Of a DNA stretch of 64,000 nt, positions 24,575 to 32,936 are shown piece after piece. The stretch's first letter is position 1. Each line of letters opens with the position of its first letter. The notes beneath the pieces were generated by a model that had not been told where the DNA came from, did not search any database, and worked only from the letters and a program-made list of their open reading frames with translations. This stretch comes from an uncultured archaeon (lineage in GTDB: Archaea; Asgardarchaeota; Lokiarchaeia; Sigyniarchaeales; SOKP01), in the NCBI GenBank assembly GCA_964486045.1, contig CAZALK010000003.1:32001-96000 (forward strand), written 5' to 3'. The position numbers and the translations under genes are program-made.

Positions 24575-25065
24575 TTATTTTTGCATTCTAGAGTCCCAAC
24601 CGAGGATAATGTTCCTCCCAAATTTATTCTTTAATATTTTAAGTGATGAAGGGATGTCGACTATTCTGTTTTTTTTAACCTGCATCATTTCCAAATTTTG
24701 TAACTTTTCAATTGTTGGTGGGATTGTTGTCAATTTATTATTTCTTATCCAAAAATCCTTAATTGATTTTAATTTGTCTATATTATCAGGAAGTGATGTT
24801 ATCTGATTATTTGATGTATGTAACCATAAGAGTGATTCTAACGAAAGGATTGGGAGTGGAAATTCAGTAAACTGATTATACTCTAAAGATAATTCTTTCA
24901 AACAATGTAAGAAACCTAAATTTCGGGGTAAATCACTGAGGTTGTTATGATCTAAATTTATATATTCTAGTGATAAAATTTCTGATAATACTTCAGGGAT
25001 TGAGAGTAGATTATTATGTGAAAGATCTAATCTTTTCAAATGATCTAATGATGTTAATTTTGCTA
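24575..25065 (-). pseudogene. LRR protein, 5'-truncated
   Basis: Six 23-aa LxxLxLxxNxLxxLP repeats; frame begins mid-repeat (LAKLTSLDHLKRLDL) back-to-back with the GIY-YIG ORF. Confidence 0.75.
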
Positions 25066-25100
25066 GCGGGTTTGTCGCACTCCAGTGATTTTCCCAAGAT

Positions 25101-27041
25101 GTGAAGATACAAAAGAAGATTACTCATAATATTGTTTCCGAGCAATTACCAAGTGATTATTATCTAAATGATGTTATTGCTGATAGTACTGATGCTTTAA
25201 TAAATGAAGGAATAGGAGATGCCATTGAGTGGGCTCAAGTTAGTTCGTTACCGAACAATCAAAGGAATTCAATAAATGAAGGTTTAATAAAGAAAACTTC
25301 TAAATGGGCTAAGGTTGCAAAAGTTGTAGGATTTTCCGGCCTGGCAGTTGCGGGGTTAGGGGTTACTGGGGGATTGGCTTCCGTATTTGGATTTTTGGGA
25401 GGGATTTCAGGCATTTTTGCTACAACTATTATGGGAACGACTGCCATGGTAAGAAATATTAATTCCTTCATAACTCCAGATTTATCATTTAGGAAATCTG
25501 TAAGAAAAACTAAAGCAATCTCCTTTATTTTGAAAAAAGGTTCAAAAGATAATATGATCGGGATTTACAGAGATAGAAGTGAAGTTCTTATTCATATTGC
25601 TAATAGACAAGAAAAATATATCAACCCCACTAATATAGATGATAAGATCAATAGCGGAGAATATAATGCTATTCAGCCTTATGAAAGTCGCCTTACTATA
25701 ATGACTCATTCCCATCATGAACTAATGAAAATCCATAATAAAAAATCTAGACAGTATAAAAATCGAGGTCTCTTTGGTGTTGTCTATTTAATTATTGACT
25801 GGGAAACCGGAAAACTAAAGGTTGGAAGGACTGAGACTTCATTAGGTACCAGAAAGTCGCAATATATCTCAGCAGCAATAAAACAGCTTAACAAAAAAGA
25901 TCCTATAACAGAAAGAATAAGGGAGTTAATAGCGATTAGAGGGAAGAAACTTGTGAGAAAAACCCTTGAGTGGATTCCAATTGAAGTAGTTTTAAGAACG
26001 GGAAGTTCTGATGGACATATCGCTCATGACCGAAAGCTTATTGAAAATTTAGAGCAATTATGGCAAAACAAATTAGACACTTCAGATCCTCGATATGGAT
26101 ATGACCAGACTTCTGGAGCTGCTGGTCCTCATGCCAGAAAAGCGAGTTACCCTCCCACTGCTGTTGAGATCACGTTACCGAGAGTATTTATTAATCCTCA
26201 CGAACTTCAAATACTTTTGGAGAAAGTATGTGATTTTAATCAAATGCTTACTGTTCTCTCTATTAAGAAAAATTATCTCGGAATTAATTCTAGAGATATC
26301 TATGAAAATATTAAATATCATTGGCCGTTCTTAGCAAGAGGATTAGACACCTTCACTCCCCAAAATAAGCTCCCAGTTTTATTAAAGAATGCAAGATATT
26401 ATTTCATAGCTCAAATAGTTAGTAATTATGTTGAAAATGGCTATGATGTTCTATCCGAAATTGCATTAACATTTCAATCTAAAGAGAATCCTTCTGGTGT
26501 ATCTAGGGAGACAATATCACGAGCTATTAAGCAAGAATTTGGGACTAATTCTTGGGCGGGTTTTCTCTCATTACATGGAACAAAGTTAACACCACAATCT
26601 ATAAAGCATCTTGACATCAGAGAATTTATAAATGTTGGCGGTAAGTCATTAGAAGATCACATAAAATTCACTTTATCTACTTTCATTATTAAAGGGCTAA
26701 GTGAAGCAGAAATTGTAGTTGAATTAAGAACACATAATTTTCATATCAGTTCTCTACCAGGTTTACAAAGGTATATCTACAAATTCTGGGGAAATTTGGC
26801 AAATGCAAGGAAAGTGTTGGTGGCTCCAATCTTGGCTTTAAGTTTTAAACTGGGCCATGATTCGACTCAGATAAGACGGGAGATGCCATTCTTTCAGAGA
26901 AGGGGTCCAGGGCTTAGCGCAGGAGATGTAGTACGAGCTTATTGCAAGCAGTGGTTTACCATAAATCCCACTCAAGCTAGGAGTATTCTGAGACTCAGAT
27001 CTTTAAGTGAATTTTTGAATCAAAATCTAAATGATCAGTAA
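25101..27041 (+). CDS. Probably 5'-truncated protein: Gly-rich hydrophobic hairpin + GIY-YIG nuclease + four HTH-like repeats
   Basis: GVVYLI..ETGKLKVGRTETSLGTRK and LEQLWQNKLDTSDPRYGYD (25767-26105); hydrophobic segment VVGFSGLAVAGLGVTGGLASVFGFLGG; no room for a promoter upstream. Confidence 0.75.
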   Translation: MKIQKKITHNIVSEQLPSDYYLNDVIADSTDALINEGIGDAIEWAQVSSLPNNQRNSINEGLIKKTSKWAKVAKVVGFSGLAVAGLGVTGGLASVFGFLGGISGIFATTIMGTTAMVRNINSFITPDLSFRKSVRKTKAISFILKKGSKDNMIGIYRDRSEVLIHIANRQEKYINPTNIDDKINSGEYNAIQPYESRLTIMTHSHHELMKIHNKKSRQYKNRGLFGVVYLIIDWETGKLKVGRTETSLGTRKSQYISAAIKQLNKKDPITERIRELIAIRGKKLVRKTLEWIPIEVVLRTGSSDGHIAHDRKLIENLEQLWQNKLDTSDPRYGYDQTSGAAGPHARKASYPPTAVEITLPRVFINPHELQILLEKVCDFNQMLTVLSIKKNYLGINSRDIYENIKYHWPFLARGLDTFTPQNKLPVLLKNARYYFIAQIVSNYVENGYDVLSEIALTFQSKENPSGVSRETISRAIKQEFGTNSWAGFLSLHGTKLTPQSIKHLDIREFINVGGKSLEDHIKFTLSTFIIKGLSEAEIVVELRTHNFHISSLPGLQRYIYKFWGNLANARKVLVAPILALSFKLGHDSTQIRREMPFFQRRGPGLSAGDVVRAYCKQWFTINPTQARSILRLRSLSEFLNQNLNDQ

Positions 27042-27145
27042 TTTACACCACCTTTAAAGTTTAAATACTTTAGTTTTTTTATTTATCAAGAAGATCGTAA
27101 TATTTAATATGTTTTATTATAGCAAAATAAAATAAGGTAATCTAG

Positions 27146-28249
27146 ATGGGAAAAAGTACTCCTTATATTATGGAAGGCGATGGGGAAGCAGATATTGAAT
27201 ATGACATAATTCAATTATTAGGATTAGACTGGTATAGCTATCTCAATGATGAGACAATTTTAAATAGACAGTTCTTAGAGTTAAATATGGAGAAAGTTTT
27301 AAATGAAGTGAAAGACCCGTCGGAAGATCCAGGTTATTTTCTAATTATTGGATATTTTATTCTGAAGACAGGAGCAGCTGTTTCTAATGCGCTCAAAAAT
27401 AAGGTTGCTGAGTCTACTAAGTGGGAATATGAAGAGACCATTTATCCTAGTAAAGAAATGGAAGAGGAGAGAAAAGTTATTCTTAAAGATTTACGGGATA
27501 AAATCCTAGACCATAGACCTGGTAGGATTACACGTTTAATTGAAGATGGTGGAGGTTATGCTCCCAAAATACTTTTTCAGGAAAAAGAATTAGTATCATT
27601 AATTGAAAAAACTTATTCACTTGAACAAATAAAAGACTTTTTTGCTAGAAAATTATCTACCAATATTTCAAAAGAAGATGTATTAGCGAATATAAAATGG
27701 TATTTTCGCATTAATTCTTATGACCTTTCTGAGGAAATCTTTAAACAAGCACAAAGAAAAATACTTAAGAAAGAATTTATAGAATTTATAGGTAAAGGTG
27801 TAAGAATTTTAGATGAGATGAACCAAAAACTTATCTCTCTTGGAAAACCCGATGAAGTTACAAGTAATGAGTTAGAAGAACTGGTAAAAGAATCCTTATC
27901 TGTTAAATCTTGGGAGGATGCTATAAAGAAACATGGGATTCCTTCAGAAGGATGGATGGATACGTATATCGAACAAGTATGTGGTATTGACACTGAAAAG
28001 TTTTCTGAAGAAGAAGAATTTGTCACTCGAGAAATGGTTGAGGTTCATTTTAGTGAGTTAGTTGAAATGGTTACTAGGTGGGGCAGTCCTAAAGGATATT
28101 ATAAACTTGGATTGCTTATTCTCGAAACAAGTGCTAGAATAACAGAAAACCTTCGAAAGGTTATTATTGAATTCACTAATGGTCTACAAGGTTTTGAGGA
28201 GAAATCGATACAAACGTTTCAAGATAAGATTCGAAGGTACAAATCCTAA
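27146..28249 (+). CDS. Acidic partner protein (candidate immunity protein) with A-B-A' architecture
   Basis: N- and C-terminal helical repeats (GYFLIIGYFILKTGA / GYYKLGLLILETSA) flank a region homologous to the HTH repeats of 25101..27041. Confidence 0.65.
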   Translation: MGKSTPYIMEGDGEADIEYDIIQLLGLDWYSYLNDETILNRQFLELNMEKVLNEVKDPSEDPGYFLIIGYFILKTGAAVSNALKNKVAESTKWEYEETIYPSKEMEEERKVILKDLRDKILDHRPGRITRLIEDGGGYAPKILFQEKELVSLIEKTYSLEQIKDFFARKLSTNISKEDVLANIKWYFRINSYDLSEEIFKQAQRKILKKEFIEFIGKGVRILDEMNQKLISLGKPDEVTSNELEELVKESLSVKSWEDAIKKHGIPSEGWMDTYIEQVCGIDTEKFSEEEEFVTREMVEVHFSELVEMVTRWGSPKGYYKLGLLILETSARITENLRKVIIEFTNGLQGFEEKSIQTFQDKIRRYKS

Positions 28250-28353: not shown

Positions 28354-29601
28354 ATGCGACCATTATCTCATTACCAAAAAGTTTCTGAGCTAACGAAATC
28401 GGATTTACTAGATAGAGCAAGCCAATTCATTTTTTCCACGGGATTGAATGACGGTGCGTCTAAACTATGTAAAGCAAATATGAAATACGGTCTTGCTCAA
28501 ATTCAACTTATACAAGAAAAATATGGATTTGAGCCAAAAGCAACATTTATTAGTTCACCTGATGAAACAATATCGAGGAATAAATTTAGATGGAGTTCTG
28601 GATTGGGATATGGTGGTCGCCTAAATTGGGGAGACGGAAACGAAAAAATTGTCTTTTTAAATGTTAAGCCTAATTGTTGTGGTTTACTTGTAGGAGGGTT
28701 AGAAGAAGTCCCAGATCCCTACGACTTGATTAAAAAAATAGATAAGATAAAATCCATTGAGCTTTATCATAATGATGTTCTAATAGATTGGGATTATGGA
28801 GTATCTAACCATTTCATTAATTGTTTTGAGACTAAAAATTTATCCGAAGTAGACCTTCCTCCTTACATTTTTATAATTCATGGTTCTGCTCCCGAATTTA
28901 GAGAAGCCAATAAGCATGGGATTGGCCTTTATATAGATAAATCAAAACTGCTAAAAGAACTCGCAATAGAAGAAAATACTAAATTTGGAAAACAATACAT
29001 ATTGATAGATTCTGATGCAAAAAACTTTCTCAAATTCCATGAAAAGGCTTTAGAGTTCTCAAATTCAAAAAGAAAAATAATAGCAAGCAAACTTTTTGAT
29101 TATGGATACAAACCAATATGTAATCAGCCGCATCAATTTCTTAAAGATTATAATAATATGTACTTAGGTAGTAATTGCACAGATACTAATTGTAGTATCA
29201 TAAAATCTGATATTTTTCCCATAACATTAAGAGCAGATATATCTGCTTATCTATTTAGAGGGAAGAAAAATTTTTCAACATTAACTTTAAAAAATGAGGA
29301 TTTTCTAAAAAGGGCTGAAAATTTTGAAGTTTTAGATATTTTGACTAATGCCTGTATTCTCCCGCATGGAGGTGGTTATGAACTTACAGATATCGATGAT
29401 GTATTAGATATTTTGGAGTATAAATATCAAAGGTATTTTGTAACTTCGCTGAAAGCAAATACAAATAGGCTTAAAATAATTAGAAATGTGGGGGAGCTCC
29501 AATTTGAATATAGGGGAAGAGATATTGTTTTAAAAACACTCCAATTAAATCTAGGGGATATTATTTCTCGGTTGACCCCGTTATTCTCGCTAAAATTATA
29601 A
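28354..29601 (+). CDS. Divergent RtcB-like RNA ligase family protein
   Basis: Ordered RtcB motifs SPD, NCCG, SNHF, IHGS, PHQ, PHGGG and C-terminal LTPLFSLK. Confidence 0.7.
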   Translation: MRPLSHYQKVSELTKSDLLDRASQFIFSTGLNDGASKLCKANMKYGLAQIQLIQEKYGFEPKATFISSPDETISRNKFRWSSGLGYGGRLNWGDGNEKIVFLNVKPNCCGLLVGGLEEVPDPYDLIKKIDKIKSIELYHNDVLIDWDYGVSNHFINCFETKNLSEVDLPPYIFIIHGSAPEFREANKHGIGLYIDKSKLLKELAIEENTKFGKQYILIDSDAKNFLKFHEKALEFSNSKRKIIASKLFDYGYKPICNQPHQFLKDYNNMYLGSNCTDTNCSIIKSDIFPITLRADISAYLFRGKKNFSTLTLKNEDFLKRAENFEVLDILTNACILPHGGGYELTDIDDVLDILEYKYQRYFVTSLKANTNRLKIIRNVGELQFEYRGRDIVLKTLQLNLGDIISRLTPLFSLKL

Positions 29602-31754: not shown

Positions 31755-32936
31755 TTAATCAGAAGCTATTTTGGCACCACAATTTCTACAAGCGCTAATT
31801 TCTTTAATCATTTTACCTAAACAGGGTTTATGATAATAAGAACCACATTTTTCACATTGAAAAACTTGATAATCCCCTAAAAAAATGCTATGGCAATAAA
31901 AACATGACGCATCGATTTGATTAACATTTTCTGGAGGAATTAATGTAAGTTTGGTTTCTAATCCTTCATCTTCTTCTATTATTGTTATCCCAACCTTGTC
32001 TTCATCTCTATCCTGAACAAACTTTAGAGCAGCTCTTGGTAATTCTAATAAAAAAAAGCAAAATGGACACCTAAATACAGTTTCTTTATATTCTGTTTTT
32101 TTCGCCCACATTGCGGCACACGATAAATGCATTGCCCTATCGCATGATGGACAATACCTACCCTCGCTGTAAAAGTCTGAGCCAGTAAGAAGAGCTTTAA
32201 CAGAATGACAAATGTTACATTTATCTTTTCCTCTACCCTTTCCGCTCATCATTAACCTCATTTCTAACAAATTAGGCCGTCTTAATGGTAATGCGATTTC
32301 ACTCACCAATGGAGCAATTTCTTCCTTTTTTTCAGGAGAAAAATAATCGATAGTTTCCCTTACCTCTTTTTTTGAAGCAAAAGCTTTTCCTGCATTAACT
32401 ATTTCTTTAGTATTATTAAAAAAACCAAATTCTCCTCTAGTTTTTTGGGTAATTCTTTTTATTGTATTTTCTTCAAATCCTTCAATTCCTCCCAACTGGC
32501 AAGCGTCAATGTAAACACCCAAGCCCTTTGCAATATTTACCATTTTATCTAATCGATCTTTATCAAATACTAACTTACTATCAGTTATAATGAGAATTCG
32601 TGGAATTTTTCCACCTATTTTCCGCATTTCTTCAACTAAGATTTGTAGAGCAAATGCGATTCCTTCATGCAATATTCCCCTTCCAGAAATTTGAATAGTC
32701 TTTAAAGAATTTATTAATTTCTCCTCCTCGTAGGCGAAACCAACTAGTTTATGTGAAGTCTCCCCAAAAGAAATTACCGAAATTCTGTCCTTCATATCGA
32801 TTGTTAATTTTGATTTGATGAAGTTTTTCGCTGTTTGAAGCCCTGCAGCTAACCGACTTGGTTTAAAATCCTTTCTGAGCATTGACCTCGAAGTATCAAG
32901 TAAAATTACTGTATCTTCAATTTTTATCTCTGGCAC
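31755..32936 (-). CDS. vWA domain (Ssl1/p44- or Rpn10-like) plus two C4HC3 RING/PHD-type fingers
   Basis: LLDTSRSMLRKDFKPSRL MIDAS; CNIC..CPSC..HLSC..CPFC and CFYC..CEKC..HKPC..CRNC. Confidence 0.8.
   Translation of the reverse strand: MPEIKIEDTVILLDTSRSMLRKDFKPSRLAAGLQTAKNFIKSKLTIDMKDRISVISFGETSHKLVGFAYEEEKLINSLKTIQISGRGILHEGIAFALQILVEEMRKIGGKIPRILIITDSKLVFDKDRLDKMVNIAKGLGVYIDACQLGGIEGFEENTIKRITQKTRGEFGFFNNTKEIVNAGKAFASKKEVRETIDYFSPEKKEEIAPLVSEIALPLRRPNLLEMRLMMSGKGRGKDKCNICHSVKALLTGSDFYSEGRYCPSCDRAMHLSCAAMWAKKTEYKETVFRCPFCFFLLELPRAALKFVQDRDEDKVGITIIEEDEGLETKLTLIPPENVNQIDASCFYCHSIFLGDYQVFQCEKCGSYYHKPCLGKMIKEISACRNCGAKIASD

Follow-up and report, generated by a model that had tools for sequence, protein, structure and literature searches.

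A putative immunity protein of an Asgard archaeon carries a diverged copy of a domain from the adjacent toxin tip

Introduction

As a rule, an immunity protein shows no sequence relationship to its toxin, and the origin of new specificities is an open question. In bacterial polymorphic toxins such as CdiA-CT/CdiI and Rhs a trunk is combined with unrelated tips behind a junction while the partner gene lies directly downstream, and the nuclease tips usually come without arrays of DNA-binding domains (Zhang et al. 2012, PMC3482391). In HipBST, an intracellular module, the toxin HipT and the antitoxin HipS are reported to be, respectively, the C-terminal and the N-terminal part of a single protein (PMC9325769). 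Here we describe a pair of adjacent genes from an uncultured archaeon of the Sigyniarchaeales (Asgardarchaeota, Lokiarchaeia), in which the partner protein appears to hold a copy of a domain of its putative toxin. The pair lies on a stretch of 64,000 nucleotides (nt) of contig CAZALK010000003.1 (assembly GCA_964486045.1, positions 32,001 to 96,000), which is called the window. All coordinates without a contig or locus name refer to it.

The upstream gene, P0001 (25101-27041, + strand), starts with GTG and encodes a predicted nuclease of 646 amino acids (aa). The downstream gene, P0002 (27146-28249, + strand), encodes an immunity-type partner of 367 aa and follows on the same strand after a gap of 104 nt. 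An earlier note on this DNA had read the two genes as toxin and immunity protein and had proposed that the partner contains the nuclease's own region of helix-turn-helix (HTH) repeats, such that immunity could arise by self-mimicry, for example through a dominant-negative heterodimer or through the shielding of target sites.

Results

The segments that the earlier note had held to be shared were exact: 26178-26579 corresponds to residues 360-493 of P0001 and 27563-27937 to residues 140-264 of P0002, and BLASTP aligned the same span (35 bits, 22% identity, expectation value (E) 3e-6). Two checks that had been proposed along with the claim were carried out. Against shuffled controls, the Smith-Waterman score of 92 compared with 28.5 ± 4.9 for 2000 shuffles (maximum 59, none of the 2000 reaching the real score), corresponding to a z value of 12.8. 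HHalign was run on family alignments comprising nine partner sequences (37-100% identity) and six toxin sequences (41-100%). It provided a probability of 98.6% (E 9e-16) over 129 columns for the family alignments, and 99.3% (E 2e-20) for the trimmed blocks. Within the 5.18-Mb genome, a hidden Markov model (HMM) of the partner block searched against 20,471 six-frame open reading frames (ORFs) found P0001 at E 1e-12 with the next match at 0.04, and an HMM of the toxin block searched against the same set found P0002 at E 1.3e-8 with the next match at 0.07. A joint profile of both blocks recovered only members of these two families from 5.8 billion proteins. Taken by their sequences, the toxin block, B, and the partner block, B', are homologous.

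With their full extent, B covers residues 360-497 of P0001 (26178-26591, +), is the source of the shared block and represents the first of two predicted seven-helix double-HTH domains of AraC/MarA type. B' covers residues 136-268 of P0002 (27551-27949, +) and is its diverged copy. It is flanked by an acidic helical domain A (residues 1-135; 27146-27550, +) and by A' (residues 269-367; 27950-28246, +), a second, diverged copy of A. The proposed layout A-B-A' of the partner therefore holds: A and A' aligned in BLASTP at E 2e-7 and in HHalign at 97.4%, and an HMM of domain A matched residues 273-345 of P0002, i.e. within A', at E 1.2e-7. Two homologues of the partner (about 453 aa; locus L056 1412-2776 and P0010) carry an extra C-terminal extension of about 85 residues after A'. 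The sharing of a block between neighbours appears to be particular to this pair. BLASTP and HMM searches found it in none of ten other adjacent pairs of tip and partner, and block B was seen neither in other sampled partners nor in other sampled tips, while AraC-like tails recur among the sampled tips.

The divergence of B' from B is uneven. In all nine partner homologues, down to 37% identity, B' has a length of 133-134 residues. The ratio of nonsynonymous to synonymous substitution rates (dN/dS) was 0.27 for B' (at an unsaturated dS of 0.54), 0.16-0.27 for toxin block B and 0.15 for domain A. When the structural models of both proteins were compared through the alignment, the seven helices of B' were in register with those of B, with 88% agreement in secondary structure at aligned positions. 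A search of the ESM Atlas with B' returned no usable match. Helix 6 is the helix with the highest identity within the partner family (0.61), and its identity to the toxin (0.13) is among the lowest. Its net charge changes from +1.5 in the toxin to -2.0 in the partner, and the position of Arg474, a residue invariant in the toxins, is taken by E, N, D or Q. By analogy with MarA, helix 6 is presumed to be the recognition helix of the second HTH. Helix 3 in turn retains a shared N-I-K motif and is the best-conserved helix between the two families (0.36), and helix 4 of B' is still basic (+2.1). The description of the partner block as more acidic thus needs restriction: over the whole block the shift is mild (net charge -8 to +4 in partners vs +1 to +7 in toxins), and it is concentrated in helix 6, where it is clear.

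Such uneven divergence looks like the signature of a function that has changed and is still under selection. Because of the purifying selection and the reversed charge of helix 6, B' is a functional rather than a decaying domain, and one that probably no longer binds DNA.

The fold of the toxin tip was addressed with an AlphaFold model of P0001 residues 190-646 (predicted local distance difference test score, pLDDT, 81.9), which was compared with representative structures using VIA-align. Residues 225-332 matched the catalytic domain of I-TevI (1ln0) with Z 8.2 and a root-mean-square deviation (rmsd) of 2.4 (86/92 aligned). The core also matched T4 EndoII (2wsh, Z 5.8) and PD-T4-3 (9u75, Z 5.6). 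The model contains the elements of a GIY-YIG (URI) fold, with strands at model positions 33-44 and 50-55, helices at 59-72 and 79-99, a strand at 100-109 and a helix at 115-135. We assign the core to residues ~190-345 (25668-26135, +). Within the family Y229, K240, G242, R243, E245, R251, E315 and E318 are invariant. Zhang et al. 2012 (PMC3482391) give 'Y, KxG, [EQ]' as the signature of Tox-URI2, with which Y229, K240-x-G242, R251 and E315/E318 agree. A profile search of PDB sequences with P0001 returned nothing.

A disordered linker (residues 328-359) connects the core to the tail, whose two blocks both resemble AraC/XylS double-HTH domains in the model. Block B (residues 363-497) matched the DNA-binding domain of ToxT (6p7r) with Z 8.1 and an rmsd of 3.1 over 104 aligned residues. 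Block C (residues 498-646; 26592-27038, +), the second domain of this type, matched about ten chains of the AraC/XylS family from residue 498 to 644 (Z 6.6-8.6 over 99-112 residues), among them 3mkl (Z 8.6), Rns (6xiu, Z 8.6), MarA (1bl0, Z 7.8) and AraC (2k9s, Z 6.6). For helical bundles, these Z values for B and C are moderate. The similarity of B and C to each other is weak (BLASTP E 0.011), and Pfam HTH_18 and HTH_AraC gave no match to the tail at E up to 1. At the level of the predicted fold, the earlier naming of an HTH-repeat region was nonetheless borne out, as both B and C match AraC/MarA-type domains. With two predicted DNA-binding domains, the tip would be unusual among the nucleases of polymorphic toxins. 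A paralogue of block C (HMM E 1.2e-7) exists in the same genome as a 226-aa ORF (contig C15:115393-116070, +) that is not associated with a nuclease core. Neither whole model, toxin or partner, had a significant match in a Foldseek search of the PDB. The model of P0002 is all helical, with a pLDDT of 86.7 and a predicted template-modelling score (pTM) of 0.74.

The N-terminal end of P0001 links the gene to giant proteins. An open frame of at least 9447 aa on contig C8 contains a stretch with 81% identity to residues 1-52, and the corresponding stretch in a 1868-aa ORF on contig C23 shows 66% identity to residues 1-65. At the DNA level this conserved pre-toxin junction (25060-25248, +) begins near 25060, i.e. 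about 40 nt upstream of the GTG, runs across an in-frame TGA located 12 nt 5' of this start codon and ends near 25248. Downstream of the junction the tips of P0001, C8 and C23 are unrelated, with the C23 tip ending in an HNH-like motif. In P0001 the junction is followed by a hydrophobic stretch rich in Gly and Ala (residues ~66-125; 25296-25475, +), in which the means of 19-residue Kyte-Doolittle windows centred at residues 79-104 exceed 1.4 and which may form a membrane hairpin. The C8 frame (contig C8:1-28344 of the same genome, G000; L069, L014) runs off the contig start. Its trunk gave no Pfam domain over the ~8700 residues scanned, including no recognisable secretion or delivery domain. 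After the C23 ORF (L015 719-6325) the next ORF lies on the opposite strand. A metagenomic protein, P0016, carries the same tip, 83% identical to P0001, on about 320 further trunk residues 5' of the junction, and it is followed by a homologue of P0002.

Since the junction is shared with C8 and C23, the DNA homology extends beyond the GTG and the TGA, and P0016 shows the same tip attached to more trunk, P0001 is best read as the headless, i.e. orphan, spare tip of a giant-protein system resembling polymorphic toxins. Three genetic features that characterize such systems were seen. Unrelated C-terminal tips follow a conserved junction on a shared trunk (C8, C23, P0001 and P0016). P0001 forms a stand-alone headless cassette that starts inside the junction and retains homology through which it might recombine with the main gene. 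The partner gene lies directly downstream and travels with the tip in the window and in the loci L057 and L055, with L060, L061 and L056 as exceptions.

The partner belongs to a family built on domain A. Within the same archaeal family 39 of 134 genomes contain it, while 265 genomes from elsewhere in the phylum yielded no member. Around ten of the 20 loci examined have the gene on the same strand 42-118 nt 3' of a tip or large ORF. Half of ten such adjacent tips share a core of the P0001 type, of which three reach an HHalign probability of 95-97% and two score lower, and a C-type tail is common to three. The tip of the C8 giant protein is likewise followed by a 162-aa gene, P0013, which consists of domain A alone. 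Solitary A domains occur in some members, while most are about 290 aa long and combine A with leucine-rich repeats (LRRs), a C-terminal half that is unrelated to B or A'. P0038 consists of A and A' joined by a short linker, with no B. P0002 itself had no match in Pfam, NCBIfam, PADLOC or PHROGs, and by Pfam it contains none of the LRRs that define Imm-LRR proteins and that are present in most of its sister proteins and in P0037, an LRR partner described below. A separate scan of genome contigs revealed no relatives of P0002. Net charges are -9 to -18 for domain A, +9 to +16 for the toxin core and +5 to +9 for the C tail. This pattern is that of an immunity family in which, as judged from its members, a constant acidic domain would be combined with an exchangeable protein-binding module. 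Three independent lines, namely the polymorphic-toxin junction, the GIY-YIG fold and the location of the partner family 3' of such tips, support the toxin/immunity setting assumed in the earlier note.

Next to the cassette and head to head with it lies the 5'-truncated fragment of an LRR gene (24575-25039, - strand; Pfam LRR_8 and LRR_14). The fragment is similar (E 1e-23 to 1e-10) to the C-terminal LRR half (residues ~150-290) of A-LRR and LRR partners that follow related toxin tips. Because it matches such partners, the fragment appears to be a second partner-type gene that was cut at the joint with the toxin junction. No meaningful DNA repeats were found flanking the cassette. A 415-aa ORF (28354-29601, +) begins 104 nt 3' of the partner, a spacing equal to the gap between toxin and partner, and has faint RtcB-like matches only (NCBIfam E 0.02). 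Further downstream, a 393-aa protein (31755-32936, -) combines a von Willebrand A (VWA) domain with PHD-like and RING-like zinc fingers in a eukaryote-like architecture. The neighbours of the cassette in the window hence encode eukaryote-like VWA/PHD/RING as well as LRR domains.

Discussion

Our preferred reading is that P0001 and P0002 represent a spare C-terminal cassette with its immunity-type partner, and that B' serves as a protein-binding module for toxin recognition or as a decoy. Taken as a whole, we consider this reading about evenly balanced between right and wrong. In the corresponding scheme, the toxin tip after the junction would comprise a hydrophobic hairpin, a GIY-YIG-fold nuclease and the AraC/MarA-like domains B and C. 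In this branch of the partner family, a copy of B would have been captured between the two A domains and kept by selection while its helix 6 turned from basic to acidic. At the position where sister partners carry LRRs, B' would dock onto the DNA-binding tail of the toxin or stand in for a domain of this tail. Basic surfaces of the nuclease and of the DNA-binding domains would be masked by the acidic A domains, which would keep the nuclease from engaging the DNA of the cell that produces it. Self-mimicry as a form of immunity is plausible in these terms. The narrower proposal that the immunity protein gained its specificity by copying the DNA-binding domain of the toxin and reversing the charge of the DNA-reading helix, yielding a decoy that pairs with or displaces the toxin's own domain, is more tentative, and we regard it as possible but rather doubtful.

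Several observations weigh against this reading. Two of them are natural variants. In L061 (genome G182) a 5'-truncated toxin remnant, which comprises only B and C and is 59% identical, lies beside the A-A' partner P0038 without B. In L060 (genome G196) an intact toxin of 70% identity, P0017, is followed by the LRR partner P0037 (L060 489-1406, -), which contains neither A nor B. P0037 consists of an N-terminal region of about 100 aa and LRRs and is thus a different type of partner for the same toxin. The A family was not detected in genome G196, which is 88% complete. Because of these partners without B in L060 and L061, B' would not be required for this toxin class. Conversely, P0009, a homologue in L056 that bears B', is not preceded by a gene resembling P0001, the upstream ORFs being unrelated to it. 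Overall, a copy of B is not the sole way to accompany this toxin, and the cassettes are reshuffled. On the supporting side, the pair is conserved in L055, where the tail of a P0001 homologue lies directly 5' of a P0002 homologue. Further points concern the predictions themselves. The headless cassette may lack expression. P0001 gave no match in Pfam or NCBIfam, nor in PADLOC or PHROGs at E up to 0.1-1. VIA-align of the partner model gave only generic helical matches to A', such that an AraC-type fold of B' is predicted from its homology to toxin block B and from the helix register, and the models of toxin and partner shared some alignment rows, which makes their agreement not fully independent.

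The alternatives differ in what they assign to B'. It might still bind DNA, either to repress its own operon as in type II toxin-antitoxin (TA) systems or to shield target sites, the second of the mechanisms suggested in the earlier note. Its descent from an AraC/MarA-like double-HTH domain speaks for this, as do the retained N-I-K motif of helix 3 (0.36) and the basic helix 4 (+2.1). However, the block is near neutral to acidic overall, Arg474 is replaced and helix 6 has a net charge of -2. Moreover, the protein would have to be very abundant to shield an entire genome, and sister partners have at this position LRRs, a module that binds proteins. As B' is taken to be functional and probably not DNA-binding, a role in protein binding, as decoy or specificity module, is favoured over target-site shielding. 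We consider a DNA-binding B' improbable.

To a similarly small degree we expect that B' is a mere spacer or scaffold, acquired by local recombination, which keeps A and A' properly spaced and makes no contact with the toxin. The truncated LRR gene at the joint could be the scar or gene shard left by such recombination, A-A' proteins with a short linker exist, and relatives of the toxin have partners without B. A plain spacer, however, would not be expected to keep conserved, charge-reversed surface positions concentrated in helix 6, and the dN/dS of 0.27 together with the strictly conserved length in nine homologues down to 37% identity also argue for more than a filler.

Even less probable is that the pair forms two subunits of one DNA-targeting machine, e.g. 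an enzyme resembling a homing or restriction endonuclease with a helper, which would share a DNA-binding or dimerisation domain. A GIY-YIG core with a DNA-binding tail is indeed the layout of homing endonucleases such as I-TevI, and arrays of DNA-binding domains are unusual for the nucleases of polymorphic toxins (Zhang et al. 2012, PMC3482391). In contrast, a conserved junction places the tip in frame at the end of giant proteins, where unrelated tips, one with an HNH-like end, occupy the same position, and the A domains of the partner are strongly acidic and belong to a family that follows unrelated tips. Finally, that B and B' resemble each other by chance or composition, as could be imagined for two helical proteins encoded at low GC, rich in K, E, I and L and only 22% identical, is practically refuted by the z value of 12.8, the HHalign E of 2e-20 and the fact that both blocks are reciprocal unique best matches in the genome.

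Regarding the origin of B', copying from the adjacent toxin gene by the partner gene is the economical explanation. Since all nine partners carry B' and only 22% identity to the toxin is left, such a capture would have occurred early. The pair would then represent a partner gene that took a domain from its neighbouring toxin gene and kept it under selection while the presumed DNA-contacting helix changed. If B' indeed recognises or disables the toxin, cognate immunity could evolve along a simple path, and the pair would be a natural case of dominant-negative design. Such a route to neutralisation by 'domain capture', which is not known to have been described for polymorphic toxins, would have been taken in the archaeal lineage closest to eukaryotes. 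In addition, the locus documents parts of an Asgard giant-protein toxin cassette, with a predicted GIY-YIG core and two AraC-like domains, as well as a new lineage-specific partner domain, A, that combines with LRRs.

Comparison with known systems

A non-exhaustive keyword search of the literature revealed no immunity protein that contains a copy of one of the domains of its own toxin, and we are aware of none. Dominant-negative helix-loop-helix (HLH) proteins of the Id type, which are eukaryotic transcription regulators, share the interaction domain of a DNA-binding protein and have lost its basic, DNA-contacting part. This is the logic proposed here for B', where dimerisation of block B is putative.

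With the bacterial polymorphic toxins, including CdiA-CT/CdiI and Rhs, the locus shares a trunk with unrelated tips after a junction, a partner directly downstream and orphan cassettes, of which the headless one keeps junction homology that could serve recombination. A URI (GIY-YIG) nuclease tip is likewise common to both, and the LRR partners found here correspond to the Imm-LRR class. The locus differs in its Asgard archaeal host, in a trunk of at least 9447 aa without a Pfam domain and in a tip with two predicted DNA-binding domains (Zhang et al. 2012, PMC3482391). Domain A matched none of the described Imm families in scans of Pfam and NCBIfam.

At the level of domains, the tip resembles I-TevI (1ln0) in having a predicted GIY-YIG catalytic domain, a flexible linker and an HTH DNA-binding region. 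Unlike I-TevI, P0001 has no Pfam GIY-YIG match, carries Lys instead of the second Tyr of the motif, ends in two AraC/MarA-type double-HTH domains and is the tip of a giant protein rather than intron-encoded. Blocks B and C share with the AraC/XylS domains of MarA (1bl0), ToxT (6p7r) and Rns (6xiu) a predicted bundle of seven helices in which a long central helix connects two HTH motifs. Here, in contrast, a nuclease tail is made up of such domains, and the partner, which is no nuclease, has one copy whose helix 6 is acidic.

The nearest precedent that we found is HipBST, whose neutraliser likewise represents one domain from the lineage of the toxin. HipBST is reported to be a split protein (PMC9325769), so that its toxin is without that domain, and it is an intracellular TA module rather than the swappable tip of a giant protein. 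In the Asgard pair block B is still present in the toxin, while the partner contains another copy that has diverged.

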